Shown piece by piece: positions 1-52,233 of a stretch of 64,000 nucleotides of DNA. The notes below the pieces were generated by a model. The model searched no databases. It worked only from the letters and a program-made list of their open reading frames with translations, and was not told the origin of the DNA. Origin of the DNA: Candidatus Veblenbacteria bacterium (lineage in GTDB: Bacteria > Patescibacteriota > Patescibacteriia > Veblenbacterales > UBA10138); the NCBI GenBank assembly GCA_030700105.1, contig JAUYKG010000016.1, positions 2,863 through 66,862 of the forward strand. The letters run 5' to 3'. The translations under genes and the position numbers were made by a program. Positions within the stretch are counted from its first letter, which is position 1. Every line of letters starts with the position of its first letter.

Positions 1-3000
1 CAGCCGAGACAAGTTCAGTGGTGCCAGAAGAAGCATCAGCCGATAGTCCGGCCGGAGCAGACCTGCCAGCAGTTCAAGAATCGGAGCTGCCGCTGTTCCA
101 CCTGCGCTTAGCGCTTGGTGGCACCGAATGGCAGCCCTTAGTGGATGTGCCGGTGAGCGTGGGTGCCGAATTACCCGGTGAAGTAGTTTTGCCTTTGTCG
201 GTGCTGGATAATTTGGAGGCTGTGCAGATTGCGCTGGTGGCCCCCAGGCGCGAAGAGGCGTCCATGTATGTGTATTTGGACGCACTGGCTATCGAGGTGG
301 ACTACAAAACAGATTTGTTTACTCCTTTACGGCAACTGGTCCAGCAAAACGATGCCGTGGCCACGGAGTCGTTGGAAATGCCGGCTAATCTGGTGTTTAA
401 TGTGGCAACCACTGATTTTGCCGCTGACGAGGATGTGGTTTTTGATTTGGATTATACGGTGGAACTTATGGGCTTGGGGTACGTGAGGGAGCGTAGTGCT
501 TCAGCTGAAAGCGATAACCTTGTCCCGGATTTTACGATTATTGAGGAAGAGACCACGCCAGCAACGGAGAAAGAGCAGTCTGCCGATATCGTGCCTGAAC
601 CAGGCGAGCAAACATCAAGCGAGACATCTACGAGCGAGGAGTCTACTATTCCCGAGCCCAGTGAGGCATCATCCAGCCCGGAATCTTCAGCCCCGACAGA
701 AACGCCAATCCAAATAGAGCCGCCGGTGCCAGAGGTAGTGCCTGCTCAGACGTCTGAAACTCCGCCCGCCACCATTGAACCACCAGTCCAAGAAGAGGTG
801 CCAATTTCAGTAGGCTCTAAGCCGTGGCGGTCGTTGGTCTTAATCGCTCCAGCGGCGGCGGCCGACACTAAGATTGATATCGTTTCCGCCCAGGTTACAT
901 ACCAGGGCGCGCAGCAGCCGGATCTGGTGCCGGTAATGGAAGAAGTGGGAGCGAGCCAGCGTCTAAAGCTTCCGCGCCCCAGTAACTCGTTCCGTCCCGG
1001 CGCGTACCACCTGGTCGTGGAGCTGACGGATGGGCAAACAACAGTGCAGGTGAGCCAGGATTTTACCTGGGGAGTTTTAGCTATTAACACGAATAAGTCG
1101 GTGTACCAGCCGGGTGAGACCGCGTATTTACAAATGGCGGCGTTGGATGATGCCGGACATACTTTGTGCGAGGCTAATTTACAGATCGCCATTACCTCGC
1201 CCGCAGGGGAACAAGTTACGCTACTAGTAAGCGACGGTAGCATTAGTTTAAGTCCTACCTGCGGCCCGGACAATGTAACAGATGAGCCGGATTACTTTGC
1301 TCGCTACCCGTTGGCTGAGGCGGGTACCTACCGCCTTACGCTTACCAACCTGGACACTGGGCACGGGATAACAGGCGAGGTGGAGGTATGGCAGAGCGTA
1401 CCCTATGTAGTGGAACGCGTAGGGGCTACGCGTATAAACCCTTTTAAGAGCAAGTACCGCATGACGCTTCTAGTAACCGCGCTAGACGGATTTAACGGAG
1501 AACTGCGTGAGGTGGTGCCGGAGGGTTTTGAGGTGGAAGCAGAGACTGGCGGCGAGGTGCGGGCCGGCGAGCAGGGCAGCGTGGTGGCGTGGCGTTTGGA
1601 GCTTGAGCCGGGTGAGAATGCTCAGGTGGCGTATGTATACCAAGCACCCGAGGAGTCTCCACAATTTTACCTTTTGGGCCCGGCTGAGCTGGGCGAACCA
1701 TCATTCCCCCTGGGGCAGTTCTTTGGAGTGTTTGGTGATGTGGTGTTTAATGAAACGCGGCAGTGGCAACTGGCCTCTGATGCCGCTTGGTACTCCGCCA
1801 GTTGGTCCTACCGGGTCAAAGTAACTGTGCAAAATGCCGAGGTGGATGCTGACCTGACGAATTTTCCTGTTTATGTGAACTTGGCGAACTTGCCTGCAGG
1901 ATTTCATACCAACGTCAACCAGACTGATGCCCGGGACATCAGGGTGACAAAATCCGACGGTACTACCGAGCTGGCCCGTGAAGTGGTGTTTTATACCGCC
2001 GCATCTGATACAGGCGAGCTTCATTTCCTGGCTAATTCTTTAGCTAATGCTTCTGATACAGATTTCTATATCTATTATGGAAATGCGGGAGCTTCAGATT
2101 ATGGAGTAACTGATACCTATGGCAGGAATGCCGTATGGGCGGGATATGTGGGAGTTTTTCATTTTAACGAATCATCTGGCGGAGCGGGAGCAATCATAGA
2201 TTCCAGTGGTACAGGGAATGATGCGACTGATACAAATAGTCCGACGTTCGCACAAGCGGGTCAATTAGGAAAATCTATTTATTTCAATGGTGGTACAACA
2301 TTTCCATATATCCGAATAGGAAGCACAAGTCTTTCTTTAACAGATTTCACCATATCTTCTTGGATGAAGTTGATGACTGGCACCACAGAGAATAACGAGA
2401 TGCTTGATTATATAGCTGGAACTGCACCTGACCGTATTCTTATCCGTCCAATAGCAGAATATTTAAAAGTCAACGGAACAACAAAACAAGGAGTCGTAAC
2501 CGCAGACAATAGAGATGCGTGGCATTATTTTGCTTTAACGAAAAACAATTCAACCCCCCTCGCAGAGTATTTCAGGGATGCAATATCAGTAACGACTTTT
2601 GCTTTTACTGCGGGAGCTTCAGATTATGCAGCAACATACGCTGGGGCAAGGTCGTACCACTCTATTTTTTATGAAGATGAGCTTCGTATTAGAACAACGG
2701 TATCGTCAGACGAATGGCTCGCCGCTGAATATTCAAACCAAAACACGCCCACAACATTTTATGCGGTGGGGGCGGAGGAGACCCCCCTCCGCGTCCAAGG
2801 CGTGGTCTATATGGCCAATGAGAGCACCTTGGGTACTTCAGGCAATAGCGGCCCTTGTGATGGCAGTACCGCGGTCATCTCCATACGCATCAATGGGGGT
2901 ACCGCAGCCACGGGCTCGTGTAACGCTACCACGGCAGCCTTTGACATTACCGCTGTTTCAGCCGCCGCTTCCGGCGACACCATCACCGTCTACCTCACCT

Positions 3001-6000
3001 CCACCATGAAAGCCAACACGGTCTATGTCTCGGACGGCAACGCTGATACGGGCATAGACCTGTACGAGAACACGCTCGTGGTGGGGCACGTGAACGCTGG
3101 CCCTGCTACCATTCTCGACCTCCTTGACTACGACAGTACGACCAATAACACTGATATGCTGTTTGACGCCGTGGACGCCACCCCCGACACCTTAACTGTG
3201 GAAGACGGGGTAGAGCTCCACGTACGCACCGCAGAAACCCTGACCCCTGGGGGCACCGTCACCACCTCGTCCTCCTCAAATGGTGCTGATACCAATAAAG
3301 ACGGGGATATCCACATAGATGGCACGGGTACCCTTAGTATGGGTACTAACACCCTCTCGGTCGGTGGGGACTTTAACAATGAAGGCACTTTTTCTAAATC
3401 AACCGGCCAAACCACCACCTTCACCGCTGCCGCCACTGGCCACACTATTACGGACGGGGGAGAGAACTTTGACTCCGTCGCCTTTAACGGTTCGGGCGGT
3501 CCCTGGTACTCCTCCTCCTGGCCCTATCGCGTTAAGGTAACCATTCAAAACACCGAGGTTGACGCTGATCTAACGAGCTTCCCGGTCTACGTCAACCTAG
3601 CCAATTTACCAGCTGGTTTCCACACCAACGTCAACCAAACAGACGCGCGGGACATCAGGGTCACCAAAGCCGACGGCACCACGGAACTGGCCCGAGAAGT
3701 CATGTTCTATACCGCCGCTTCGGACACGGGAGAACTACACTTTCTCGCCGACGCTCTTTCCAATGCCTCTGATACCGATTTCTATATCTACTATGGCAAT
3801 GCGGCTGCGTCTGACTATGCCGTTACGGATACCTATGGCAGAAATGCGGTGTGGGGAGATTACGAAGGTGTTTGGCATTTGAACGAAGCAAGTTCAACCA
3901 GAGTAGATTCCAGCGGGAACGGGAATGATATGACCGATAACAATACCGTTTTATCAGCCGCTGGAAAGCTGGCTGGAAACGGAGCAGATTTTGAAACTTC
4001 CGTCCCAGAATATCTTTCCCGAACCGATGCTAATTTGAGCGCAGGATTTCCTGGTAAAAACGGTACTACACCAGCGGCACTCACTGTTTCTTGGTGGTTC
4101 AAACTGGAATCTTTCGTTACGACAAATGTGATGAATATGATTGCCAAGAATGCCACTACGGAAAATCCATATTTTGGGTATGTATATCCTACAGCTGGGA
4201 ATGATTTTCGGGCACAATTAAGTACTACCATTGCCTCGGCTGCCGATTCTGTGACTTCGGCTGGTGTATGGTATAGAGGAGCTTTGGTATGGGATGGAGC
4301 AGATGCTCAAACTTATATAGACGGCGTGGCAAGCGGTTCATCTGTTTCGGTTTCGTCTGTTCCAACAAATACAGGAAGCCTTTGGTTTGGAACAAGAGGA
4401 AGCTTAGGCACAACCCGTTCTATGGATGGCGTCATTGATGAGATTCGTATCCAAGTCATTGACCGCTCTGCCGACTGGGAAGCCGCCGAATACAGCAACC
4501 AGAGTGCCTCAGCCACGTTTTACAGCGTAGGGGAACAGGAAGGGGCCTGGTATAATGCCAGTTGGGATTATCGGGTAAAAGTAACCATTCAAAATGGTGA
4601 GGTGGACGCCGATCTCACCAGCTTCCCGGTTTACGTCAACCTAGCCAATTTACCAGCTGGTTTCCACACCAACGTCAACCAAACAGACGCGCGGGACATC
4701 GGGGTCACCAAAGCCGACGGCACCACGGAACTGGCCCGTGAAGTCGTGTTCTATACCGCCGCCTCTGATACGGGTGAGCTCCACTTCCTGGCTGACTCCC
4801 TGTCTAATACTGTTGATACTGATTTCTACATCTATTACGGCAACGCCGCTGCCTCTGACTATGCCGTTACCGATACCTATGGCAGAAATGCGGTGTGGGC
4901 AAATCATCTTGCAGTTTATCACTTGGCTGATACCCCAACGGGAAGCGCGGGAGACATAACCGACTCATCGGGGAATGGGAAGCATATGACCTCTGTCAAT
5001 ATGGACAGTGGGAATGTGGTGGCTGGGGCTTGGGGCACTGCTTTGGCCTTTAACGGTACAGACGAGTATGCGCTTATTGCAGAGGCACTTAACGCCACAC
5101 TTCCCGCATCGGTCACTGCAATTGTTAAGCCAACGGATGTTGGGGCAGCAACGGAACGATACTTTTTCTCAACTGCGAAGTCAACCGATGACCTTAACGA
5201 ACAAGTTGCAGGTATAAGGAATACCGATACATATATAACACTCACAAGAGGAGGAGCCCCCAGTGCAGTTGCGGAATCAACGATAGATATGACAGACGAC
5301 GCATATGCTCACGTGGCAAGCGTTTGGACTTCAGCAACGAGCAGAGCGGCATATCTTGATGGTGCAAATAAGGGGACAAACACCACATCAAAAACCGCTG
5401 CTGGGCTTGATAGGAGTGCGATTGGCGTTCGTGCGCGGTCTTCACTTGGAGCATATTGGGAGGGAGAGATTGATGAAATTCGTCTTTACGACGGAACATT
5501 GTCTGACCAATGGATAGCTGCCGAGGCCAGCAACCAGAACACGCCTACTACTTTCTACAGTGTGGGGTCAGTCGATGGTTCTAGCGGTGGCTGGTCCTTT
5601 GCTGACAGCACCACTATAGACGTGGACCTTACCCTGACCGCCGGTACCCTCTCCGGCACCCAAGACCTCACCGTGAACGGAGGAGACGTTACTGGCGACG
5701 GGGACATTAACCTTACTGGTGGTACCTTCCTCTTAGATGGAGCCTCTACCACTGGTTTTGGTGGCGCTACCGCCTGGGACTTTAACAACCTTACCCTGGG
5801 GGATGGTACGGGTACTACGACCACGACCGCAATAGGAGCGGGCGGTGTGACGGTGGCTGCTACGCTCACTATTGCTGCTAACCAAACGCTTGATATGAAC
5901 ACGAACGATCCGCCTCTGGATGTGAATGGTGCTGTTTCCATTAGTGGTACTCTCACTGCTTCGCAAACCGCCGTTTTCTCCGTGGCAGGGGACTTTACCA

Positions 6001-6854
6001 ACAACGGCACCTTCAATAACTCCTCGGGCACCGTTACCTTTGACGGTGCTGGCACCAGTACATTCAACGGTTCCAGCGCTCCGGCCATTACTTTCCACCA
6101 CTTCACCTCCACGACGGCTGGCAAGGTCCTTTCCTTTACCGAGGCCAAAACATTCCGTATTAACGGTGTTCTTACCATCCGCGGCTCCAGCGGCAACCAA
6201 ATTACCATTCGTTCCACTTCAGCCTCCAACCAGTGGCTCATTAACCACCAAGGTACGGAGAGCGTTCAGTACGCAGCCATTTATGATTCAGGGTGCGATG
6301 GCTCAAGTACCTACATTTCTCTGGACAACACCTCCAGTGACGGCGACGGTAACAACGGTACCTGCTGGCTGTTCCCCAGTTTGTCCTTCACCCTCAGCTC
6401 CACTTCAGCCAGCTTAGATTTGAACAGTGCTAATACCTTTACCACCACTGCCTCCACCACGCTCACGGTTACGGCCCGCTCGGCCTTTGGCTACCAGGGT
6501 TACGCTAAACAAACGGATAACCTGAGGCATACCGCCGACGCAGGTATCACCATAGCCGATTGGACCGGCACCAATGCTTCTCCCACGGTATTTAACGAGA
6601 CGTGCATAGCCAACGGTGCTAAGTGCGGGTGGGGGTACAACACGAACGATGCTGGCCTTACCCAGTTCGTGGATTCAACGTACTATGCCGGTTTTGTGCA
6701 GAGCACTACGGGCCCGGGCGATATCGTAGCCACGGCTTCGGGCCCAGTATCGTCCGACGCGACTATTATCACCTATCGTGCCAGCGTGGCTATGACGCAG
6801 GCCGCCGGGCCGTACCAAACAACGGTGGTTTATATAGTTACACCGCAATTCTAG
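1..6854 (+). CDS. Giant secreted/surface protein, 5'-truncated (>2278 aa here). It has three DUF2341-like + LamG-like modules, beta-helix-like G/T-rich repeats, and a conserved C-terminal domain shared with the 8477..9751 product.
   Basis: The ORF at 18..6854 has a reading frame that stays open to the window edge, so the true start is probably upstream. A ~120-aa module appears three times: 'SWxYRVKVT(I/V)QNxEVDADLTxFPVYVNLANLPAGFHTNVNQTDARDI(R/G)VTKxDGTTELAREVxFYTAASDTGELHFL...DTDFYIYYGNA'. Each copy is followed by a LamG/ConA-like segment ending 'DEIRI/ELRI...W(L/I)AAEYSNQ'. The C-terminus 'YRASVAMTQAAGPYQTTVVYIVTPQF' matches the C-terminus of the 424-aa neighbour. Confidence 0.8.
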   Translation, partial: AETSSVVPEEASADSPAGADLPAVQESELPLFHLRLALGGTEWQPLVDVPVSVGAELPGEVVLPLSVLDNLEAVQIALVAPRREEASMYVYLDALAIEVDYKTDLFTPLRQLVQQNDAVATESLEMPANLVFNVATTDFAADEDVVFDLDYTVELMGLGYVRERSASAESDNLVPDFTIIEEETTPATEKEQSADIVPEPGEQTSSETSTSEESTIPEPSEASSSPESSAPTETPIQIEPPVPEVVPAQTSETPPATIEPPVQEEVPISVGSKPWRSLVLIAPAAAADTKIDIVSAQVTYQGAQQPDLVPVMEEVGASQRLKLPRPSNSFRPGAYHLVVELTDGQTTVQVSQDFTWGVLAINTNKSVYQPGETAYLQMAALDDAGHTLCEANLQIAITSPAGEQVTLLVSDGSISLSPTCGPDNVTDEPDYFARYPLAEAGTYRLTLTNLDTGHGITGEVEVWQSVPYVVERVGATRINPFKSKYRMTLLVTALDGFNGELREVVPEGFEVEAETGGEVRAGEQGSVVAWRLELEPGENAQVAYVYQAPEESPQFYLLGPAELGEPSFPLGQFFGVFGDVVFNETRQWQLASDAAWYSASWSYRVKVTVQNAEVDADLTNFPVYVNLANLPAGFHTNVNQTDARDIRVTKSDGTTELAREVVFYTAASDTGELHFLANSLANASDTDFYIYYGNAGASDYGVTDTYGRNAVWAGYVGVFHFNESSGGAGAIIDSSGTGNDATDTNSPTFAQAGQLGKSIYFNGGTTFPYIRIGSTSLSLTDFTISSWMKLMTGTTENNEMLDYIAGTAPDRILIRPIAEYLKVNGTTKQGVVTADNRDAWHYFALTKNNSTPLAEYFRDAISVTTFAFTAGASDYAATYAGARSYHSIFYEDELRIRTTVSSDEWLAAEYSNQNTPTTFYAVGAEETPLRVQGVVYMANESTLGTSGNSGPCDGSTAVISIRINGGTAATGSCNATTAAFDITAVSAAASGDTITVYLTSTMKANTVYVSDGNADTGIDLYENTLVVGHVNAGPATILDLLDYDSTTNNTDMLFDAVDATPDTLTVEDGVELHVRTAETLTPGGTVTTSSSSNGADTNKDGDIHIDGTGTLSMGTNTLSVGGDFNNEGTFSKSTGQTTTFTAAATGHTITDGGENFDSVAFNGSGGPWYSSSWPYRVKVTIQNTEVDADLTSFPVYVNLANLPAGFHTNVNQTDARDIRVTKADGTTELAREVMFYTAASDTGELHFLADALSNASDTDFYIYYGNAAASDYAVTDTYGRNAVWGDYEGVWHLNEASSTRVDSSGNGNDMTDNNTVLSAAGKLAGNGADFETSVPEYLSRTDANLSAGFPGKNGTTPAALTVSWWFKLESFVTTNVMNMIAKNATTENPYFGYVYPTAGNDFRAQLSTTIASAADSVTSAGVWYRGALVWDGADAQTYIDGVASGSSVSVSSVPTNTGSLWFGTRGSLGTTRSMDGVIDEIRIQVIDRSADWEAAEYSNQSASATFYSVGEQEGAWYNASWDYRVKVTIQNGEVDADLTSFPVYVNLANLPAGFHTNVNQTDARDIGVTKADGTTELAREVVFYTAASDTGELHFLADSLSNTVDTDFYIYYGNAAASDYAVTDTYGRNAVWANHLAVYHLADTPTGSAGDITDSSGNGKHMTSVNMDSGNVVAGAWGTALAFNGTDEYALIAEALNATLPASVTAIVKPTDVGAATERYFFSTAKSTDDLNEQVAGIRNTDTYITLTRGGAPSAVAESTIDMTDDAYAHVASVWTSATSRAAYLDGANKGTNTTSKTAAGLDRSAIGVRARSSLGAYWEGEIDEIRLYDGTLSDQWIAAEASNQNTPTTFYSVGSVDGSSGGWSFADSTTIDVDLTLTAGTLSGTQDLTVNGGDVTGDGDINLTGGTFLLDGASTTGFGGATAWDFNNLTLGDGTGTTTTTAIGAGGVTVAATLTIAANQTLDMNTNDPPLDVNGAVSISGTLTASQTAVFSVAGDFTNNGTFNNSSGTVTFDGAGTSTFNGSSAPAITFHHFTSTTAGKVLSFTEAKTFRINGVLTIRGSSGNQITIRSTSASNQWLINHQGTESVQYAAIYDSGCDGSSTYISLDNTSSDGDGNNGTCWLFPSLSFTLSSTSASLDLNSANTFTTTASTTLTVTARSAFGYQGYAKQTDNLRHTADAGITIADWTGTNASPTVFNETCIANGAKCGWGYNTNDAGLTQFVDSTYYAGFVQSTTGPGDIVATASGPVSSDATIITYRASVAMTQAAGPYQTTVVYIVTPQF
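1790..2150 (+). repeat. Intragenic module repeat copy 1 (DUF2341-like), the most diverged copy.
   Basis: A DNA/protein repeat of the module also found at 3500..3880 and 4550..4925. Confidence 0.7.
3500..3880 (+). repeat. Intragenic module repeat copy 2.
   Basis: Positions 3591..3694 match 4635..4738 over 104 nt with one mismatch. Confidence 0.8.
4550..4925 (+). repeat. Intragenic module repeat copy 3.
   Basis: Near-identical to copy 2 over long stretches. Confidence 0.8.
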
Positions 6855-6860
6855 GAAAAG

Positions 6861-6910
6861 CAGTATAAAAACAGTATACAGTATTAAGTATTCAGTATTT
6901 AGTATTTGGT
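6861..6910 (+). repeat. Tandem short repeats of (C)AGTAT(T/A) immediately upstream of the four-helix-bundle gene.
   Basis: cAGTATaaaaacAGTATacAGTATtaAGTATtcAGTATttAGTATttgGTATg: seven units. Confidence 0.6.
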
Positions 6911-7285
6911 ATGGAGAATCCTAAAATTCATTCGTTCAAGGATTTAGTTGTGTGGCAAAAGGCGATTGAACTCGCAGTTATTGTGTACCAACTAACCCAG
7001 AAGTTCCCTAATCAGGAAACATACGGGTTGGTTTCCCAGCTCCGTCGTGCCGCGGTATCGGTTTCTTCCAATATCGCCGAAGGGTTTACCCGTAGCTCTC
7101 GTCGAGAGAAGGTGCAGTTCTATGCCATAGCGCGCGGATCGCTGGCAGAAGTAGAAAGTCAGCTTGAGTTAGCGAGGCGAGTTGGCTATGTGCCTAATAA
7201 CGATTATCATGCGTGCGGTGCTCAACTTGAGGACGTTCGTAGGTTATTGGGTAAGTTCGTTTCAGCAGCAACCGATAAGCCATGA
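6911..7285 (+). CDS. Four-helix-bundle protein (23S rRNA intervening-sequence protein family, TIGR02436-like).
   Basis: 124 aa with the family hallmarks 'FKDLVVWQKAIELAV...YQLTQKFP..E.YGLVSQLRRAAVSVSSNIAEG' and 'FYAIARGSLAEVESQL'. The ATGA overlap with the next gene suggests co-translation. Confidence 0.75.
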   Translation: MENPKIHSFKDLVVWQKAIELAVIVYQLTQKFPNQETYGLVSQLRRAAVSVSSNIAEGFTRSSRREKVQFYAIARGSLAEVESQLELARRVGYVPNNDYHACGAQLEDVRRLLGKFVSAATDKP

Positions 7286-8460
7286 AAAGAAATCTTATAC
7301 TTCTGGCCGTCGTGCTGAGTACTGTATACGGTATACTGTATACTTCTTCGGCAGCTGCTGCCGAAGTTGGTTTCAGTGTGTCCGAGAGTTTGTTTGACAT
7401 CTCCTTGCCGCCCGGGGCCGAACAAGAGGTGCAGTTGGTGGTGTTCAACCAGTCCAACGCCGAGCCATTGCCCGTGCACCTGGAGCTTACCTTGTGGGGC
7501 TTGAACGATGATACCGACAGCATAGAGTTTACGACCGCCGATGAAGCGCTTAATGCCGCGCGCTGGTTTGAGCTTGCGGGTACGCCGGATTTTATTCTAC
7601 AGCCTACGGGAGAGCATGAGGTCGTGTGGAACATCAGCGTACCACCCGAAGCTCCAGCTGGTTCGTACTTGGTAATGGCGCGATTCATACCGGCACTGCC
7701 GGAGCATTACTTTAGCGAAGCGGGTCCGCGTTCCGTACCCGAACTCGGCGTGTTGTTCTTTATTAAGGTGGTGCCTTTGGGTTTTGAGATGGCTGATTCG
7801 TACCGGGCGAGTATAACTTCGTTCCAGCCACAAGGCAGAGGCTGGAAGTTCATACCCGGGGCTGAGGCCGCCGCCAAGGCGGGGCAAGCCGGCGTGTACG
7901 GCAGCCTAGCCAGTGCTTTTCAAGCTCTGGTGAAGAATGAAGGTTTGTACTTTTTCAAAGCGCAAGGGACCGTTGAGGTCAGAGGCTGGTGGGGGAGGCA
8001 GGTGGCGCACTTCGTCTTACCTGAGAAATACCTATTACCGGGTAACACCCGGCAGCTGACAGCACAAAGTGAAACCGAATCCTGGTTCAAGCGTCGGTTG
8101 CATTTCGGGCTGTATCATGCTCAGCTGGCCTTGGCGGTGCCGAACCACGACTTGCCGGTAGTCTCCGAGGTATCATTTTGGGTGATTCCCTGGGACTTTA
8201 TCCTGGCCCTACTAGCTGTAGCTGGTGCGATAATAGCCAGCCGGAGGCGGGTGTGGGCTGCGGCTAGGGCTTTGGCTATCCCTCAGGCTATCTCCCCTAT
8301 TGACCATTCTGACAGTTATGGTATAATTAACCCGTCTTTACCAAGCCCTCCCAAGGCGCGTTCTTGGCCAGGCACTGCCTCGGTCAAGAAAAAGCCCAAG
8401 AGGACGCCACGACGCTTGAGCGAAAAGGCACGCTCTCGCCGCCGTTTAATCCAAGATTAA
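7282..8460 (+). CDS. Exported protein with a cleavable signal peptide, a beta-sandwich ectodomain, and a C-terminal TM anchor plus basic tail (DUF916/DUF3324, CscA-like architecture). It is a paralog of the 9832..10788 product.
   Basis: Signal peptide 'MKRNLILLAVVLSTVYGILYTSSAAAAE'. C-terminal 'FWVIPWDFILALLAVAGAIIASRRR' followed by a K/R/S/P-rich tail. Segments align block by block with the 318-aa paralog (PGAEQEVQLVVFN ~ PGETVENVVRVYN; WFELAGTPDFILQP ~ WVSVEPTDFVLP). Confidence 0.6.
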   Translation: MKRNLILLAVVLSTVYGILYTSSAAAAEVGFSVSESLFDISLPPGAEQEVQLVVFNQSNAEPLPVHLELTLWGLNDDTDSIEFTTADEALNAARWFELAGTPDFILQPTGEHEVVWNISVPPEAPAGSYLVMARFIPALPEHYFSEAGPRSVPELGVLFFIKVVPLGFEMADSYRASITSFQPQGRGWKFIPGAEAAAKAGQAGVYGSLASAFQALVKNEGLYFFKAQGTVEVRGWWGRQVAHFVLPEKYLLPGNTRQLTAQSETESWFKRRLHFGLYHAQLALAVPNHDLPVVSEVSFWVIPWDFILALLAVAGAIIASRRRVWAAARALAIPQAISPIDHSDSYGIINPSLPSPPKARSWPGTASVKKKPKRTPRRLSEKARSRRRLIQD

Positions 8461-8476
8461 TTAAACAAACACGCCT

Positions 8477-9751
8477 ATGCAGTACCTCTATCGTTTCTTA
8501 CGTAAGCCCAACGCCAAGCCGAGCGTGATGGGTCTTGTTTTTGTAACCGTATTGGCGCTTTCCGGGCTGTATGCTTTGGGGGTGCCTCAGCGCACCAATG
8601 CTGCCGCTTTAACAAGCGTAAAGGCTACCCTGAGCGATTCCCGTCCTGGCAACGATGCCAACTGGACCATCCAGTTTGTTATGCCAACCCTCATCAATGA
8701 GAACGACACGATCGTGTTGGGCATTGACACCATAGCCACCGCGGACGAGTTTAACCTCGCCGATATTGCCGAAGCCGCCGGTGCTTCTGACTTTGATTTA
8801 GCGGAGGATACCGACGGCAGCCCGGGTAGCTGCAGTGGCACGCTAACGGACGAAACGTTGGATGCGTCAGCTGGTGCCGCCGCCTGGGGCGTGGGCGTGA
8901 ACACCACTACGGATACCATTACCTTTACCGCGCCTTCTGGCGTCGCCACCTATATTGCCGCCAGCGCTTGCGTGGTCATTGAAATTGGCACCAACGCGAC
9001 CAATGAATTCACGGGCGTGAACCAGATAAACAACCCCTCCAAAACAGCTGCCGCCGGCACGGCCGATGTTAACGACGTGGCTATTAGTTTTACCGGTAAC
9101 GCGGCGGCTGATAGCGGCACGGCCCTGGTTGCTACCGTGGAAGGCGTAACCGTGTCTGTTACGATCGACGAATCACTCTCCGTGGTACTGGCCGAAGTAG
9201 CGGCCGCAAGTTGTCCTAGTACTCTTCCTGGAACTGACAAGTCGGATGAGGCTGGCCACACAGACACAGCCATTGATTTCGGTACATTAACGAGCGGTGA
9301 CGCGTTCTACAACAGCTGTCACCAGCTTACCATTGGCACGAACGCTACCGACGGCTATAGCACGACCGTGTACAAGACCCAGTTGTTAACCGCTGGCTCA
9401 GATACTATTGCCGAGGGCGATTGCAACGCCGGTAGCTGCACCACCACGGGTTCTGGCCTGTGGACCACCACCACCGAGAACGGCTTCGGGTACTGTATGG
9501 ACGACGTAACCGGTGATGCGGCCGTCACGGCTGATGGCTCCGGCTGGACCACTGCTGAACAGTGCGACGACGCTACGCCGGAGTTCAAGCTCTTTGGCAC
9601 AGCCACCGGTAACTCACAAGCCATTATGTCCAGTGCCGCACCGGTATCAGGCGATAACAGCATTATCGCGGCCGTGCTTAACTACTCAGCGAGCCAAGCG
9701 GCCGGTACATACACCACCACGCTGGTATTCGTTACTACGCCCACCTTCTAA
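8477..9751 (+). CDS. Secreted protein (424 aa) whose C-terminal ~170-aa domain is homologous to the giant protein's C-terminus. It is a possible cell-wall-binding, WxL-like module.
   Basis: N-terminal signal/TM segment 'VMGLVFVTVLALSGLYALG'. It is G/T/A/S/D-rich and carries Cys pairs (CPST...C, CNAGSC). The C-terminus 'LNYSASQAAGTYTTTLVFVTTPTF' aligns with the giant protein's 'ITYRASVAMTQAAGPYQTTVVYIVTPQF'. Confidence 0.55.
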   Translation: MQYLYRFLRKPNAKPSVMGLVFVTVLALSGLYALGVPQRTNAAALTSVKATLSDSRPGNDANWTIQFVMPTLINENDTIVLGIDTIATADEFNLADIAEAAGASDFDLAEDTDGSPGSCSGTLTDETLDASAGAAAWGVGVNTTTDTITFTAPSGVATYIAASACVVIEIGTNATNEFTGVNQINNPSKTAAAGTADVNDVAISFTGNAAADSGTALVATVEGVTVSVTIDESLSVVLAEVAAASCPSTLPGTDKSDEAGHTDTAIDFGTLTSGDAFYNSCHQLTIGTNATDGYSTTVYKTQLLTAGSDTIAEGDCNAGSCTTTGSGLWTTTTENGFGYCMDDVTGDAAVTADGSGWTTAEQCDDATPEFKLFGTATGNSQAIMSSAAPVSGDNSIIAAVLNYSASQAAGTYTTTLVFVTTPTF

Positions 9752-9831
9752 ACCCACGAACATCTGGCAGAGAGTTTTCCAGATTCCGCTTTGTACTTGA
9801 TGACGATACGGACAGCTGATAAATTTAATCC

Positions 9832-10788
9832 ATGAATTCACCTTTTGCGCGGTTGACGGCGGTACGCGCTTCCGGCTTCTCTGTGGTAGGGGCCGCGGTT
9901 CTCCTGGGGCTTTTAGGCTCTGGGGCGCCGCGGTTTGTTTTTGCGCAAGCGGGTAGCGCCATTTCCTTGGCGCCGCTCACCTTCGAACTAACAGCCAATC
10001 CCGGGGAAACCGTGGAGAATGTGGTGCGCGTATACAACAATGGTGACCAGCCGGTGACCGTAGTGATGCAGGTGCAAGACTTTGCCGCGGCTGGTGAGCG
10101 CGGTGAAGTGGTATTGCAGGAAGCTGACAATCATACGTTCTCTCTGGCTAGTTGGGTGAGCGTGGAGCCCACCGATTTCGTGCTACCGGCTAAGGAATTC
10201 AAACCCGTAACCTTTAAAGTTGCCCTGCCGCCAAACGCCGAGCCGGGCGGACACTATGGTACTGTTCTGGCCTCCGTTACTGGCGTGGCTTCTGGCACGG
10301 GCGCGGCTTTGGCGCAAAAGATAGGCTCACTCATTCTACTGCAAGTGCCTGGTGTGATCAGTGAACAGCTCGCTTTGGCTTCTTTGGAAGCGCCCGGGTT
10401 TTCCGAATATGGCCCGGTGACCTTGACGGCGCGCTTTAAGAATGACGGCTCGGTGCACCTGAAGCCGAGAGGTTTTGTGTTGGTAAAGGGTATGACCGGA
10501 CGCGAGGTGGCACGCTTAGACATACCGCAGCAGAATGTATTGCCGACTTCGGTGCGTAGGATAGATGTTGATTTCCTCGGTAAGTGGCATTGGGGTCGCT
10601 ATACCGCCACCCTAACGGCTATCTATGGCTCGACCAATGAACCGCTGTCTGCTAGTGTGGCATTTTGGATATTTCCCTGGAAGGTGAGTTTGGCAGTACT
10701 CATAGCCGCCTTTATAGTACTGTATGCTCTTTACCGCGGCAGGCGCAGGTTGGCAGCGGCTGGGCGTGTACTGGTTAAGGGGAGCTAA
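9832..10788 (+). CDS. Exported protein with a signal peptide, a beta-sandwich ectodomain and a C-terminal TM anchor (DUF916/DUF3324, CscA-like). It is a paralog of the 7282..8460 product.
   Basis: Signal peptide '...SVVGAAVLLGLLGSGAPRFVFAQA'. It contains 'FELTANPGETVENVVRVYNNGDQPVTVVMQV'. The C-terminus is 'FWIFPWKVSLAVLIAAFIVLYALYRGRRR'. Confidence 0.6.
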   Translation: MNSPFARLTAVRASGFSVVGAAVLLGLLGSGAPRFVFAQAGSAISLAPLTFELTANPGETVENVVRVYNNGDQPVTVVMQVQDFAAAGERGEVVLQEADNHTFSLASWVSVEPTDFVLPAKEFKPVTFKVALPPNAEPGGHYGTVLASVTGVASGTGAALAQKIGSLILLQVPGVISEQLALASLEAPGFSEYGPVTLTARFKNDGSVHLKPRGFVLVKGMTGREVARLDIPQQNVLPTSVRRIDVDFLGKWHWGRYTATLTAIYGSTNEPLSASVAFWIFPWKVSLAVLIAAFIVLYALYRGRRRLAAAGRVLVKGS

Positions 10789-10794
10789 GGCCGA

Positions 10795-10875
10795 GTATGT
10801 AGGTATGTAGTATGTAAGTATGTAGGGGGTACGCTCTTTCCTTACATACCTATATACCTATTACCTATTACCTAT
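10795..10875 (+). repeat. Tandem GTATGTAG-type repeats forming a long imperfect palindrome upstream of the dockerin-protein gene.
   Basis: GTATGTAGGTATGTAGTATGTAAGTATGTAG ... CCTTACATACCTATATACCTATTACCTATTACCT, which is the reverse-complementary arm. Confidence 0.6.
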
Positions 10876-11848
10876 GCTTTGTTCCGCCGGAGAACATTTC
10901 GGTGTGAAGGCCCTCGGTACAGCCGCAGCGGTTATTTTATTGTTGGGGGCTGGTGAGCTCTGGGCGCAAACCTCTAACTGCACCCCCGCAACGTTGCCTT
11001 GTCCGTCCCTTGATAGTACGGTCAGCATTACTATCGGTGGTTCCCCCGGCGGCGGGGGTGGCAGTAGCGGCAACCTACCCCGTGAAGTGACCGATGGTGA
11101 TGTCGTCATCAAGGGCTACAGCGCGCCCGGCAGCATTGTTACCATTCTGCGGGACGGTACGGTGGCGGCCTCGTTTATCACACCGATCGAGGGCAGGTTT
11201 GAGCGTACGCTAACCATCATACCGGCCGGTATTCACACCTTCGCCCTGTTCGCCATTGATCAGGAGGCTCATGCTACGCCCACTGTGGCCCTGTCGGTTT
11301 CCGTGGCCGGCGGCACGGTGACGACCATAGCTGATCTGGTGATGCCGCCCACACTTTGGGCCAACCCAGCGGCCACGACGCAAGGCTCGCCCGTGGCCTT
11401 GAACGGTTTTGCCGCTCCGGGGGCTGAGGTATTTATTGCCCTGCCTTCGGGTTTGCCTGTGTTGAGGGCGACCGCCGCCGGCAGCGGCCGTTTTTCCGCC
11501 TCCTTTGACACATCTGTTTTGTCTCTTGGTGTATATGTGGTACGCGGGTATGCTCGTTTGAGCGGCGGGCTGTTGAGCGAGTTTAGTTCACCTGTGCGCG
11601 TAGTGGTCCTTCCTGCCGGGACACCGCCCGAGGTAATACCCACAGAACCTTCCCTACCGCCAGGCGAAGAAGAGGAGGTGCGTACCTGTGCGCGCGGCGA
11701 CCTTAGTAACGACAGTCACGTGAACCTCACCGATTTCAGTATTCTGATATACTGGTGGGGGAGCGTGAACCAGTGTGCCGACCAGAATGGCGACGGTAGC
11801 GTGAACTTAACCGACCTCTCCATACTCTTGTACTGGTGGACAGGGTAG
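10874..11848 (+). CDS. Secreted Ig-like protein ending in two dockerin-like Ca-binding repeats. The start may instead be the GTG at 10904.
   Basis: Signal peptide 'KALGTAAAVILLLGAGELWAQ' and a Gly-rich linker 'GGSPGGGGGSSGN'. The C-terminus has tandem ~24-aa repeats 'GDLSNDSHVNLTDFSILIYWW' and 'ADQNGDGSVNLTDLSILLYWW', matching the dockerin pattern D-x-N/D-x-D-G-x-VN-x-xD-x-x-x-L. Confidence 0.6.
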   Translation: MLCSAGEHFGVKALGTAAAVILLLGAGELWAQTSNCTPATLPCPSLDSTVSITIGGSPGGGGGSSGNLPREVTDGDVVIKGYSAPGSIVTILRDGTVAASFITPIEGRFERTLTIIPAGIHTFALFAIDQEAHATPTVALSVSVAGGTVTTIADLVMPPTLWANPAATTQGSPVALNGFAAPGAEVFIALPSGLPVLRATAAGSGRFSASFDTSVLSLGVYVVRGYARLSGGLLSEFSSPVRVVVLPAGTPPEVIPTEPSLPPGEEEEVRTCARGDLSNDSHVNLTDFSILIYWWGSVNQCADQNGDGSVNLTDLSILLYWWTG

Positions 11849-11854
11849 GGGAGT

Positions 11855-11889
11855 GAGTATTAAGAATTCAGTATACAGTATTCAGTATG
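11855..11889 (+). repeat. Tandem AGTAT repeats upstream of the first cohesin-like gene.
   Basis: gAGTATtaagaattcAGTATacAGTATtcAGTATg. Confidence 0.55.
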
Positions 11890-13125
11890 ATTAATGCCGT
11901 ACTAAAACATATTCAGAGCGCGTCGCAGCCTTCCGTAGCGGTAAAACATTTTGGCGTAGACGGTAAGGGTTTTCCGCTGTTGATCATACTATATACGTTA
12001 TACTGGATACTGAATACTCCAATTGCTTCTGCCGCCACCATTTCCGTTCTGCCCCAAGGGACCGAAGTAGGCGTGGGGCAGACTTCTCTAGTTGAATTAT
12101 GGCTTGATACTGAAGGGGAGACGGTGAACGCGCTCTCCTTTGTCCTTGCCTTTGATCCGCAGTTCGTGAGTGTGGAAAGTGTTTCCACTGGCGGCAGTGT
12201 CTTTAGCCTTTTCCCTGTACCACCCTTGGTCTTGAACGAGCGCGGTGTGGTGGAGCTGTCTGCCGGTGCGCCCGGCGGGTTCGCGGGACAAGGGCTAGTG
12301 GCCAACATTTTGCTGCGGGGTCTACGGGTTGGCACAGCCGCGCTCAGTATTACTTCCAGCCAGGCGCTTAAGCATAGTCCGACGGCAGAGCCCATCTCCC
12401 TGCGTGTTCTTGGCTCTAGCCTGCAGGTGGCTACGCCGGAGACAGGTGAAATCGTTATAACCTCTAAGGATCATGCCGAGGAAAGTGTGTGGTATAACGT
12501 ACCATTCATCCGTATGTCATGGCCAGTTCGTCCGGGGGCTTCGTATAGCTACGTGCTGTCCCGTTCGCCCAACGAAGAGCCTGATGAAGTACCAGATGAA
12601 CCAACGGGGGAGATTAAGCTGAGTATAAGTGAGGACGGCGTGTTCTACTTTCACCTGCGCGAGTGCCGTGCCGGCACGTGCGGACCCACCGTTACGCGGC
12701 GGGCTATGAAAGATACCACACCGCCCGAACGCCTGGAGCTCGCGGTTGGTGCAGCGTCAGGTGTATTGGAGGGTAAAGTGTTCTTGAGCTTTACCGCCAG
12801 CGACGCGACTTCAGGGGTAGCGCACTACGAAGTCTGGGAAGAGGCAGTAGGTGAAACTTGGGAGAGGGTTATGAGTCCTTACGTGCTACAAGACCAAGCG
12901 CACCAGGGGGTGGTGCGTGTGCGGGCTTATGATACAGCAGGGAACTATCGCGAGGAAATACTTTCTCCTTTGGCTCCAGAGCCTTGGTACAGGTCAGAGG
13001 TGGTGTTTTGGGGTATACTGGTAGTAGGTTTAGCTGCTCTGGGAGTAACAATTTTTGTTAAACGCCGTGGGCAAGCCGGTCCAGCGCCCCAGGCTAACCA
13101 GTCTTCCACGCCTCCTTTGCCATGA
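11887..13125 (+). CDS. Membrane-anchored protein with an N-terminal cohesin-like domain, an FN3/Ig-like domain and a C-terminal TM.
   Basis: N-terminal hydrophobic segment 'FPLLIILYTLYWILNTPIASA'. The cohesin-like region reads 'ISVLPQGTEVGVGQTSLVELWLDTEGETVNALSFVLAFDPQFVSVESVS...VVELSAGAPGGFAGQGLVANILLRGLRVGTAALSI'. C-terminal TM 'VVFWGILVVGLAALGVTIFV'. The region downstream of the cohesin-like block is homologous to the following gene. Confidence 0.55.
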   Translation: MINAVLKHIQSASQPSVAVKHFGVDGKGFPLLIILYTLYWILNTPIASAATISVLPQGTEVGVGQTSLVELWLDTEGETVNALSFVLAFDPQFVSVESVSTGGSVFSLFPVPPLVLNERGVVELSAGAPGGFAGQGLVANILLRGLRVGTAALSITSSQALKHSPTAEPISLRVLGSSLQVATPETGEIVITSKDHAEESVWYNVPFIRMSWPVRPGASYSYVLSRSPNEEPDEVPDEPTGEIKLSISEDGVFYFHLRECRAGTCGPTVTRRAMKDTTPPERLELAVGAASGVLEGKVFLSFTASDATSGVAHYEVWEEAVGETWERVMSPYVLQDQAHQGVVRVRAYDTAGNYREEILSPLAPEPWYRSEVVFWGILVVGLAALGVTIFVKRRGQAGPAPQANQSSTPPLP

Positions 13126-36840: not shown

Positions 36841-36900
36841 TATTTTTGGCTATAGTGCATAGTGCTAAGAGATAAAGTCTAAGTACTAAGTACCAAAGCT

Positions 36901-41605: not shown

Positions 41606-41633
41606 TAGTTAACTAAACAAAAAGTGAGGAAAA

Positions 41634-41866: not shown

Positions 41867-41912
41867 GGTCGCCGGCTCCTCACTTTTTTTGCCGTTATGT
41901 TAGAATAAGGGC

Positions 41913-52046: not shown

Positions 52047-52233
52047 ATGGTAGGCGGGTTAAGGATGTTCTTAAGTATACCATTAGCCGTGGCTCCAGGG
52101 GAGGGGAGTGTGGTAGAATGGGGAAAGTTAAGGGTGAAGAGTTAAGGGTAAGAGGTTGGTCCGGGTGGTTATTTTCTAATCCGAGCTTTAGCCTGGTAGC
52201 TCTTACTCTACGCTCTTACTCTAAACTTTTTCT

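Follow-up and report, generated by a model that had tools for sequence, protein, structure and literature searches.

Repeat arrays of the surface-protein gene cluster

The window, as we call the whole stretch of 64,000 nucleotides analysed here, carries a cluster of surface-protein genes with short tandem repeats in three of its spacers. A partner array in reverse complement lies 12, 85 or 412 nt downstream of each array, which gives three long stem-loops (elements 1 to 3). The strands of the stems are themselves tandem arrays of 7-nt units, or of 8-nt units in one arm. The features are the following:

6856-7344, + strand: element 1, enclosing the whole four-helix-bundle gene
6856..6912, + strand: 5' arm of element 1, seven AGTATNN-type units, pairing with 7315-7344
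6911..7285, + strand: four-helix-bundle ORF (124 aa, pI 9.4; PF05635 23S_rRNA_IVP / TIGR02436), loop of element 1
7315..7344, + strand: 3' arm of element 1, ATACTGT/ATACGGT units, reverse complement of the 5' arm
7282..8460, + strand: downstream surface-protein gene, whose signal peptide holds the 3' arm (context, outside the repeat proper)
10795..10826, + strand: 5' arm of element 2, GTATGTAG four times; period 8, 4.1 copies
10840..10875, + strand: 3' arm of element 2, CCTTACATACC and then TACCTAT four times (4.0 copies), inverted relative to the 5' arm
11855..11894, + strand: 5' arm of element 3, AGTAT/AGAAT units
11895..11979, + strand: loop of element 3
11980..12019, + strand: 3' arm of element 3, ATACTNN units

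TRF and a pattern search located the three arrays where the initial annotation had put them. That annotation had recognized the upstream arrays but only half of a four-site set, missing the partners at 7315-7344 and 11980-12019, which lie inside the ORFs starting at 7282 and 11887. In the 5' arm of element 1, AGTAT occurs at 6862, 6873, 6880, 6887, 6894 and 6901 and GGTAT at 6908; TRF reports period 7 with 5.0 copies at 6872-6906, the first unit being set off from the others by 11 nt. The pattern AGTATNNAGTAT has 9 matches in the window, spread over four sites that make two convergent pairs. With 0.05 matches expected from dinucleotide shuffles, and 9 reached in 0 of 100 shuffles, chance or composition as the source of the arrays is ruled out. 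The TRF matches of the arrays are 85-95% with 2.7-5 copies, the units vary at positions 6-7, and the long run of identical units that marks a contingency locus is absent. The earlier statement that no comparable repeats occur elsewhere holds for strong period-7 arrays, of which the window has no other, but needs qualifying for two weaker sites: heptamers recur in degenerate form between rplA and dcd (36850-36893), and units of ~7 nt make up a weaker hairpin at 52126-52223.

The idea that the repeats are structural elements extends beyond the second site to all three, each array forming one side of a long inverted repeat. In every element the predicted RNA fold joins the arrays, with z scores of -4.22, -4.06 and -4.13 for elements 1, 2 and 3. 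Concerning the suggestion that a shared regulator uses the arrays as operators, a promoter scan found no sigma-70-like promoter within them, and promoter-like sites in 6000-13000 were at background (5 against 3.8). No Rfam family, rRNA included, reaches threshold anywhere in the window, and a scan for intrinsic terminators (GC-rich hairpins with a T run) did not pick up any of the three array hairpins. The only nearby match of that scan is a separate palindrome at 7346-7366.

Element 1 and the two hairpins without an ORF

By its profile matches, ORF 6911-7285 is a full-length member of PF05635/TIGR02436, above the curated cut-offs. It matches PF05635 with E 5.8e-39 (133 bits against a cut-off of 33.8, profile positions 1-105 of 106) and TIGR02436 with E 7e-37 (126 bits against 24), and is matched by PDB entry 2gsc, which has five chains, with E 1.4e-24. 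The ATG of the gene falls in the last unit (GGTATG) of the 5' arm, and no Shine-Dalgarno sequence is visible ahead of it. The arms at 6873-6902 and 7315-7344 (30 nt, 80% complementary, 412 nt apart) form a duplex of 33 pairs at -40.7 kcal/mol, and the full fold of element 1 closes on them. Element 1 is placed exactly between the giant surface-protein gene's stop codon and the start codon of the gene that follows, an ATG overlapping the four-helix-bundle stop (ATGA). The 3' arm of element 1 lies 30 nt beyond the latter stop codon, within the next gene (ORF 7282-8460), where its in-frame translation contributes the stretch ..STVYGILYT.. to the signal peptide. This position, unlike that in most other cassettes, where the 3' arm begins at the stop codon, counts against the explanation that we favour below.

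The known elements most similar to element 1 are the S23p intervening sequences (IVSs) of rRNA in Coxiella burnetii and Leptospira (PMC4990558). The Coxiella IVS consists of an S23p ORF, a 28-bp terminal stem and 2-3 tandem heptamers before the ATG, their number varying among strains, and RNase III cuts at the first repeat (PMC4990558). Element 1 encodes the same protein family, has a terminal complementary stem (~28-30 bp in both cases) and is embedded in a host transcript, and its seven heptamer units end directly in the ATG (cf. PMC4990558, Figure 6), with a Shine-Dalgarno sequence that is poor or absent, as in the IVS. Unlike the IVSs, which interrupt helix 9, 25 or 45 of 23S rRNA, it lies in the spacer of a protein-coding operon and is flanked by protein-coding genes, not by an rRNA helix. 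It also differs in having heptamer arrays on both arms, the 3' arm lying inside the signal peptide of the next gene. Element 1 is thus probably an intervening-sequence-type cassette in an mRNA operon, an S23p ORF closed by a ~30 bp AGTATNN/ATACTNN stem.

The hairpins of elements 2 and 3 belong to the same repeat class and lack an ORF. The long imperfect palindrome that had been pointed out before the dockerin-protein gene is indeed present, with its inverted arm at 10840-10875. It folds at -36.8 kcal/mol with 35 pairs on the + strand, 8 of them G-U. The dockerin-protein gene, whose product is not on record by exact-sequence look-up, has its ATG (10874) in the last TACCTAT unit. In element 3, the arms are 40 nt long, 80% complementary and 85 nt apart, and the 5' arm is identical to that of element 1 at 29 of 34 positions. 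The last unit of this arm (CAGTATG) carries ATG 11887 of the cohesin-like gene; if this is the start, translation of the loop gives the protein an N-terminal extension of unusual length. The 3' arm encodes the hydrophobic core of the signal peptide (IILYTLYWILNT), so that the 3' arms of both elements 1 and 3 are in frame inside signal peptides. Paralogy of ORFs 7282 and 11887 was rejected as the origin of the array-coded signal peptide that they share (E 0.17), and a word-index search for homologs of ORF 7282 returned only itself. The element 3 loop as a decayed four-helix-bundle gene is likewise unsupported, since its local alignment score of 17 was reached by 167 of 500 shuffles.

Comparison with strains, relatives and metagenomic loci

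The arrays are identical in the other assemblies that were found, where these cover them, namely Logan contig SRR13727534_324184 (as L001 for element 1 and as L327 for elements 2 and 3) and GCA_034375465.1 (as L002, element 1). These are the same strain as the window, with one SNP in 9.4 kb, and because of this the identical unit number says little about phase variation. At orthologous cassette sites in other organisms, the number and type of units change in 7-nt steps.

A more distant locus, L205, shares the gene order of the window (giant gene, 332, 411, 317, dockerin protein, cohesin-like, 687 aa). It is an empty site, with a junction of 2 nt in place of the array and the four-helix-bundle ORF of the window. 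Its cohesin-like gene has no N-terminal extension, and no period-7 array is found in 13 kb. Synteny with L205 also revealed an ortholog of ORF 7282-8460 (41% identity, E 1e-82). Compared with that of this ortholog, the signal peptide in the window has 5 additional residues, and its array-coded stretch has no counterpart in L205. The differences between element 1 and L205 are therefore two and lie apart, one ahead of the ATG and one within the signal peptide. At the positions of element 3, in contrast to this absence, two other relatives with 46% protein identity (L203 and L204) carry GTAGTNN/CTACTTT arrays; element 3 is conserved at the orthologous place in these two distant relatives, with the unit changed on both arms. 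Their predicted minimum-energy folds pair the arrays but surpass those of shuffled sequences by a modest margin only (z -1.7 and -2.0), which is a point against our favoured explanation.

The wider survey covered 62 metagenomic loci encoding relatives of the four-helix-bundle ORF. In 29 of the 62 the units on the two sides of the gene are reverse complements of each other with at most 1 mismatch, against 7.2 +/- 2.3 under permutation (maximum 16 in 2000 permutations) and 2 in a direct-orientation control of the same loci. All 52 arrays counted near four-helix-bundle genes have period 7, and periods 5, 6 and 8-11 gave 0. Arrays reach 2.6 per kb close to the gene ends, compared with 0.23 per kb elsewhere in the same loci, and the units vary among loci while the paired arms co-vary. 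Neighbouring genes are co-directional upstream (51/52) and downstream (51/56), and none of 40 loci tested contained rRNA. The layout of array, four-helix-bundle ORF and inverted array is thus general in co-directional gene strings outside rRNA. Of the strong metagenomic cassettes, 15/18 favour the sense strand when folded with 120-nt flanks, with about an even split when 75-nt flanks are used. All hairpins of the window fold better on the + strand, a preference that strand composition bias could also yield. As a pointer to selection on the RNA and not on the DNA, the comparison of the two strands is therefore at most suggestive, which is a further point against the explanation favoured below.

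The proposal that the repeats mark the surface cluster does not hold more widely. In other bacteria, hairpins of this kind flank four-helix-bundle genes and fill spacers in numerous unrelated operons, among them sigma/anti-sigma, pilus and polysaccharide operons, and in many genomes the ORF-less ones fill spacers exactly. The AGTAT array itself is not a specific marker of four-helix-bundle genes: among 120 AGTAT-array loci, 7 such genes were present and 4 adjoined the array. Viral and giant-virus contigs commonly carry AGTAT arrays as well, and no relatives of the four-helix-bundle gene were found in viral contigs. What is diagnostic of these genes is the inverted period-7 architecture around them, not the AGTAT unit.

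Possible role of the hairpins

The explanation that we favour, and consider more likely right than not as a whole, is that the arrays are the 5' arms of three stem-loops acting in RNA processing or translation control, element 1 being a cassette of the intervening-sequence type. By analogy with the systems compared here, a role of the hairpins in RNA processing or translation control is probable. The hairpins would form in the polycistronic RNA and hide three start codons, those of the genes for the four-helix-bundle, dockerin and cohesin-like proteins. Their double-stranded stems of at least 25 bp would be substrates of RNase III, and processing or destabilization of the message by this enzyme would set the amount of downstream surface protein made. 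A cut in elements 1 and 3 would fall inside coding sequence, with activation or silencing as possible outcomes. The repetitive arms could allow the stem to re-pair in several registers and to change length in 7-nt steps. No RNase III gene (rnc) lies within the 64-kb window, and this, like the position of such cuts in coding sequence, is a point against this explanation.

The best experimental precedent for RNase III-controlled expression is hmw1A of H. influenzae, where a heptamer repeat serves as the left arm of a hairpin in the 5'-UTR and RNase III processes this hairpin (PMC12721329). As in hmw1A, a heptanucleotide array upstream of a surface-protein gene is predicted to form the left arm of a long imperfect leader hairpin in all three elements. 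The hmw arrays have at least 11 perfect ATCTTTC units facing a G-rich arm that is not a repeat, whereas those of the window have 4-7 imperfect units facing a reverse-complement array, reach into coding sequence and in one case enclose a gene. A second comparison is provided by intergenic heptamer direct repeats by start codons, namely TAACTGA in Beggiatoaceae, Cyanobacteria and Bacteroidetes (PMC4679880), the cyanobacterial STRR, and long heptanucleotide simple repeats (Mrazek 2007, as cited in PMC4679880). They share with our arrays the period of 7, the intergenic position ending a few nt from a start codon without Shine-Dalgarno sequence, strain indels in 7-nt steps and a scattered phylogeny (Bacteroidota, Cyanobacteria and others). 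Beggiatoa, however, has 169 direct TAACTGA sets and a single inverted one, while the inverted partner array is the defining feature in the window, and for these earlier repeats a link to four-helix-bundle genes was not reported.

The elements could instead be selfish at the DNA level, with the arrays as terminal inverted repeats of REP/REPIN- or MITE-like units and any effect on expression incidental. The presence/absence polymorphism relative to L205 fits this, as do the near-identical arms of two elements 5 kb apart (29/34 and 22/25 positions), the ORF-less hairpins that exactly fill spacers, the occurrence of one four-helix-bundle clade in two operon contexts with similar arms, and the long-suspected mobility of IVSs. 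REP/REPIN elements are short palindromes dispersed in spacers, and the RAYT gene, which encodes a tyrosine transposase, is flanked by inverted copies of them. Here, by contrast, the enclosed gene encodes a four-helix bundle without known catalytic activity and the arms are tandem arrays. No transposase or integrase was found in the window, no target-site duplication was seen, and the difference between element 1 and L205 falls at two places, not in one block. Element 3, moreover, has been retained at one site with an intact reading frame across orthologs of ~46% identity, which suggests constraint, and we regard the selfish origin as doubtful. It concerns origin and would be compatible with our favoured explanation of function.

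It also seems unlikely that the arrays are read by an oligomeric nucleic-acid-binding protein and not by RNase III, the AGTAT core being the recognized part and the 2 variable nucleotides a spacer, much as TRAP reads GAG/UAG repeats. Candidate readers would be the basic, probably pentameric four-helix-bundle protein, with one unit per subunit, or a general factor, for example S1 or a cold-shock protein. The conserved core and variable spacer within the arrays agree with such a reading, as do the tight association of heptamer arrays with four-helix-bundle genes and the pI of 9.4 of the window protein. Both solved homologs were deposited with five chains, the Xanthomonas S23p protein is a homopentameric toroid (PMC4990558), the homolog Avd forms a pentamer with positive charge and binds a specific RNA element, and MacGregor proposed binding of S1, Csp or CsrA to the TAACTGA repeats. 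Nevertheless, similar proteins can have very different units at their genes, the proteins found with the AGTAT unit are only ~45% identical, and there is no clear preference for five units. The 4/120 AGTAT-array loci with an adjoining four-helix-bundle gene and the frequency of these arrays in viral and giant-virus contigs also speak against it.

The arrays could further be contingency loci, in which slippage changes the number of units at high frequency and switches or tunes the surface-protein genes, a reading that we consider improbable. In a 5' arm, a change would alter the leader; in a 3' arm, gain or loss of 7 nt would shift the frame of ORF 7282 or 11887. In favour of this reading, the genes encode surface proteins, the 3' arms are part of coding sequence and 7 is not a multiple of 3, the arrays at orthologous cassette sites differ by whole units, Coxiella strains differ by one heptamer, and the hmw1A repeat is phase-variable. 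Unlike the latter, the arrays of the window show no variation across the other assemblies, which are identical over the covered arrays, though of the same strain. The units are imperfect and few (3.6 to 7), so slippage is lowered, and this reading leaves the inverted pairing and the enclosed ORF unexplained. The occurrence of the same elements in sigma/anti-sigma, pilus and polysaccharide operons does not fit it either.

A diversity-generating retroelement, with the four-helix-bundle protein as its Avd diversifying the neighbouring surface proteins and the repeats as template or target, deserves almost no credence and is effectively refuted within the window: Avd is a homologous basic four-helix bundle with a pentameric, RNA-binding barrel, PF05635 proteins resemble it and surface proteins lie next door, but ORF 6911-7285 matches the Avd models only weakly and below their cut-offs (NF033474, 30.4 against 80; bAvd Pfam, 20.5 against 40), no reverse transcriptase was found in the scanned ORFs (37/57 ORFs of at least 70 aa), and the window holds no direct repeat pair of template and variable regions (TR/VR).

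A broader scenario is tentative and less likely than not. Cassettes of this type may be a widespread class that has colonized ordinary mRNA operons, and not rRNA alone, in CPR bacteria and several other phyla, the pentamer may read the arrays, and derivatives without an ORF may have been domesticated as conserved 5' regulatory hairpins of surface-protein genes. These ORF-less hairpins would even donate the in-frame hydrophobic core of the signal peptides of such genes.

The PF05635 family has been without a known role since its discovery in rRNA intervening sequences, and the arrangement of period-7 array, ORF and inverted array in co-directional operons provides a concrete handle on it. The finding joins three literatures, on rRNA intervening sequences, on unexplained intergenic heptamer repeats and on the RNase III-dependent heptamer hairpin of H. 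influenzae. In these elements, non-coding repeat arms become part of a signal peptide. For CPR bacteria, which are not culturable alone, the arrays suggest post-transcriptional control of the expression of cell-surface proteins.

Architecture of three hairpins and the gene family within element 1

The initial annotation described tandem-repeat tracts in three spacers of the surface-protein cluster, and all three are present where it placed them; the repeats are real, and what was overlooked is that inverted partner arrays lie downstream. In the 64 kb, AGTATNNAGTAT has 9 matches against 0.05 expected from dinucleotide-preserving shuffles. These nine exact matches form four sites, two of them on the minus strand (7333-7344 and 12000-12018), each 3' of a plus-strand array. 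The arrays and arms belong to element 1, a hairpin around the four-helix-bundle ORF 6911-7285, and to elements 2 and 3, hairpins without an ORF at the dockerin-protein and cohesin-like genes.

Arrays and arms of the three elements
6856-6912, plus strand: element 1 5' array, AGTAT at 6862, 6873, 6880, 6887, 6894 and 6901, GGTAT at 6908
6873-6902 and 7315-7344: element 1 arms, 30 nt, 80% complementary, 412 nt between
10795-10826, plus strand: element 2 5' array, 4.1 copies of GTATGTAG
10800-10827 and 10840-10867: element 2 arms, 12 nt between
11855-11889, plus strand: element 3 5' array, AGTAT/AGAAT units, ATG 11887 within the final unit
11855-11894 and 11980-12019: element 3 arms, 40 nt, 80% complementary, 85 nt between

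The predicted RNA folds close on these arms, with z of -4.22, -4.06 and -4.13 for elements 1, 2 and 3. Since all three regions fold shut on the array arms, the window has three long hairpins whose stems are tandem 7-8-nt units. The earlier interpretation of the tracts was right in part.

The 412-nt loop of element 1 is approximately ORF 6911-7285, a full-length PF05635 protein (23S rRNA intervening sequence protein, E 5.8e-39) that also belongs to TIGR02436 (four helix bundle protein). The nearest solved relative of its product is Xanthomonas XCC0516 (PDB 2gsc, E 1.4e-24, five chains in the entry), described as a homopentameric toroid (PMC4990558). The ORF has its ATG at 6911 within the final unit of the 5' array, its stop overlaps the next ATG (ATGA, 7282), and the 3' arm is translated within the signal peptide of ORF 7282, MKRNLILLAVVLS-TVYGILYT-SSAAAAEV. 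Directly 3' of this arm, in the signal-peptide cleavage region (SSAAAAEV), lies a 9-bp palindrome without mismatches, CTTCGGCAG C TG C TGCCGAAG (7346-7366), which a terminator scan picked up despite its coding location. A stop triplet, TAG, TAA or TGA, occurs in most heptamer units (as at loci L132, L149 and L178 and at 6880-6905 of the window); because 7 and 3 have no common factor, at least three such units give a stop in all reading frames. The coding 3' arms of the window (ATACTGT, ATACGGT) have no stop in any frame, and three heptamer units make 21 nt, which keeps the frame.

Housekeeping spacers had been said to lack comparable repeats, which nearly holds: a degenerate heptamer run (36850-36893, tagtgca tagtgct aagagat aaagtct aagtact aagtacc aaagct ATG), a weak period-7 array ending at a start codon, occupies the whole stretch from the ribosomal protein L1 gene to that for dCTP deaminase. 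A fourth hairpin of ~7-nt units (52126-52223, AGTTAAG GGTGAAG AGTTAAG GGTAAGA versus GCTCTTA CTCTAC GCTCTTA CTCTAA) sits among small unannotated ORFs in the dnaE-ftsW region. Its RNA folds at -40.4 kcal/mol on the plus strand versus -23.9 on the minus strand, with 9 G-U pairs, and the flanking ORFs are called on the minus strand. A 21-nt inverted repeat (41610-41630 and 41877-41897, 81% complementary, 246 nt between arms) sits in the 307-nt tmk-gatB gap, which has neither an Rfam match nor an ORF of 70 aa or more. The giant surface-protein gene (18-6854, probably extending beyond the window start) carries three 300-nt direct repeats of 76-84% identity (1786-2085, 3502-3801 and 4546-4845). An identical protein fragment in the database bears the name Candidatus Veblenbacteria, a lineage of the CPR / Patescibacteria. 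Outside the surface-protein cluster, the window carries housekeeping genes (the ATP synthase operon, pheS, nusG, L1, dcd, thyA, folA, tmk, gatB, miaA, dnaE, ftsW, L25, prmC, prfA, tsf, pyrH and gap). No reverse transcriptase, RNase III or second four-helix-bundle gene was found among the 37 of 57 window ORFs (at least 70 aa) that were scanned, and no Rfam family reached threshold across the whole window.

Insertion polymorphism and covariation in related loci

A homolog search with ORF 11887 led to L205, a relative with the gene order of the window (giant protein, then proteins of 332, 411 and 317 aa, the dockerin protein of 322, the cohesin-like protein of 378 and one of 687 aa). Orthology is clear from the identities of the 7282 protein (41%, E 1e-82) and the dockerin protein (48%). 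In L205 two bases separate the stop of the giant gene from the ATG that comes next, and both the four-helix-bundle gene and the array are absent from this junction. The signal peptide of the L205 ortholog, MRRLFAIAALLVLVPFSAAEAGSVG, is five residues shorter than that of the window up to the start of the BLASTP alignment and has no counterpart of the array-coded TVYGILYT. The gap between the dockerin and cohesin-like genes is 2 nt, the cohesin-like protein has no N-terminal extension, and no period-7 tandem repeat was found in the 13 kb of L205. Lacking the four-helix-bundle gene, the arrays and the extension, L205 therefore represents the empty state of elements 1, 2 and 3. DNA homology between the window and L205 restarts at the palindrome 7346-7366.

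The cohesin-like protein has its two closest homologs at L203 and L204 (46% identity), and these loci show the layout of element 3 at the orthologous place. Their 5' array directly follows the dockerin-gene stop and ends near an ATG (GTTAGTA TGTAGTA GGTAGTG AGTAGAA TGTAGTG), and the ~100 nt after it are readable as an N-terminal extension. The 3' arrays (CTACTAC TTTCTAT TTTTTAC TTTCTAC in L203, ACTACTT TCTACTT TCTACTT TCTACCT in L204) code a hydrophobic core, LLLS(I/T)FYFLPT. The predicted minimum-energy and centroid folds pair both arrays, with z of -1.7 and -2.0. The unit is AGTAT/ATACT in the window and GTAGT/ACTAC in L203 and L204; this exchange on both arms, with position, pairing and reading frame unchanged, argues for constraint on the stem of element 3. 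At L206, a Parcubacteria relative (889-1188, 2315-3011), the orthologous spacer is 300 nt long and carries a non-heptamer inverted repeat (GTCATTCTGAGG... / CTCAGGATGAC...) unlike element 3, and a nucleotidyltransferase/HEPN pair is inserted 3' of the cohesin-like gene. The junction at this gene seems to attract insertions.

Generality of the arrays and of the four-helix-bundle cassette

Species-representative genomes were scanned for four consecutive AGTATNN units, and at least 120 loci were found; the estimated chance expectation is ~1 at even base composition and ~17 if all genomes had 35% G+C. The matches listed come from Bacteroidota, Patescibacteria, Anaerolineae, Ignavibacteria, Atribacterota, Cyanobacteria, Planctomycetota and others, and their arrays very rarely lie within long ORFs. 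An inverted partner array lies within 1.5 kb in 25 of the 120 loci listed, and for many of the 25 the hairpin occupies an inter-ORF spacer exactly from end to end. Only 7 four-helix-bundle genes lie in the 120, and 4 of them directly adjoin an array. Four-unit arrays are also common in IMG/VR viral contigs (L207-L286 and more, at least 120), many labelled giant-virus bins (GVMAG), so the AGTAT unit alone is not specific.

Scanning metagenomes with the window four-helix-bundle protein gave 80 loci that encode relatives 40-56% identical to it, and in many of these loci a heptamer array precedes the gene and its reverse complement follows it. The units vary by locus (AGTATTT/AAATACT, TAGTCGT/ACGACTA, GGAATTT/AAATTCC, TAGCCAC/GTGGCTA, AAGGGAT/ATCCCTT, GAGTAG/CTACTC, TTCGTGA/TCACGAA). 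At 62 non-redundant loci whose flanks were usable, the best unit on each side was compared in any phase with at most 1 mismatch. The upstream unit is the reverse complement of the downstream unit in 29, against 7.2 +/- 2.3 under permutation (at most 16 in any of 2000 permutations); 14 loci match exactly, against 1.4 under the null, and the direct-orientation control gave 2. All tandem arrays found within 150 nt of these genes have period 7 (52, with none at periods 5, 6 or 8-11). Array density is 2.6 per kb near the genes and 0.23 per kb elsewhere in those loci, a background that includes coding DNA and thus overstates the enrichment.

Upstream arrays usually end ~30 nt or less from the ATG, and downstream arrays often start at the stop codon itself. 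The neighbours share the direction of the gene in 51 of 52 cases upstream and 51 of 56 downstream, and the median gaps are 50 and 36 nt, which places the cassettes within operons; no rRNA was found in the 40 loci tested. At orthologous sites across samples (an ECF sigma/anti-sigma spacer and a polysaccharide-kinase spacer), the arrays differ from one another by complete units, and the two arms vary together. Several of the cassettes L158, L127, L185, L149 and L173 adjoin tRNA genes; judged by eye, the downstream array of L158 seems to run into a putative tRNA, and a glmS ribozyme lies ~1.5 kb downstream of the cassette in L173.

Known systems and possible mechanism

The finding belongs to two known kinds, the intervening sequence (IVS) and the heptamer-repeat hairpin. 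The IVS of Coxiella 23S rRNA (428 nt) combines an S23p ORF with a terminal stem of 28 bp. Its ATG is preceded by tandem GACAGAT heptamers, two or three depending on the strain, and RNase III cuts at the first heptamer repeat (PMC4990558). The S23p ORF can also occur in CPR rRNA insertions (PMC11270868). Element 1 has all the sequence features of a 23S rRNA IVS but not the defining rRNA location, and is therefore called IVS-like rather than classed as an IVS. Intergenic heptamer direct repeats adjoining start codons without Shine-Dalgarno sequences, of unknown function, are described in Beggiatoaceae, Cyanobacteria and Bacteroidetes (PMC4679880). Upstream of the H. influenzae adhesin gene hmw1A, (ATCTTTC)n supplies the left arm of a long hairpin in the leader, whose processing by RNase III raises expression and is required for repeat-number change (PMC12721329). 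Among mechanisms understood from experiments, this one comes closest to the window hairpins. A limited literature search returned no published link between PF05635 genes outside rRNA and inverted heptamer arrays.

We propose that the stems form in polycistronic RNA, where they would bury three start codons, those of the four-helix-bundle and cohesin-like genes in the 5' arms of elements 1 and 3 and the dockerin-protein start codon at the base of the element 2 3' arm, and that RNase III cuts them. A cut in the 3' arm of elements 1 and 3 would land in coding sequence, so the stems could repress unless ribosomes or ATGA coupling hold them open; the direction of their effect cannot be predicted from sequence. 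The plus (sense) strand of the window hairpins is predicted to fold better (-40.7 versus -28.4, -33.3 versus -25.4 and -55.8 versus -44.7 kcal/mol). It is also favoured in 15 of 18 strong metagenomic cassettes with 120-nt flanks, a preference that splits about evenly with 75-nt flanks. Selection may act at the RNA level, with strand composition bias as a confound in these comparisons.

RNA hairpins of this kind would not exclude phase variation at the arrays, nor arrays that bind protein, including the pentameric four-helix-bundle protein itself, nor elements mobile at the DNA level. A diversity-generating retroelement is effectively excluded. For PF05635, a very widespread and uncharacterised family, the finding provides a reproducible cis-signature that is open to direct experiments.
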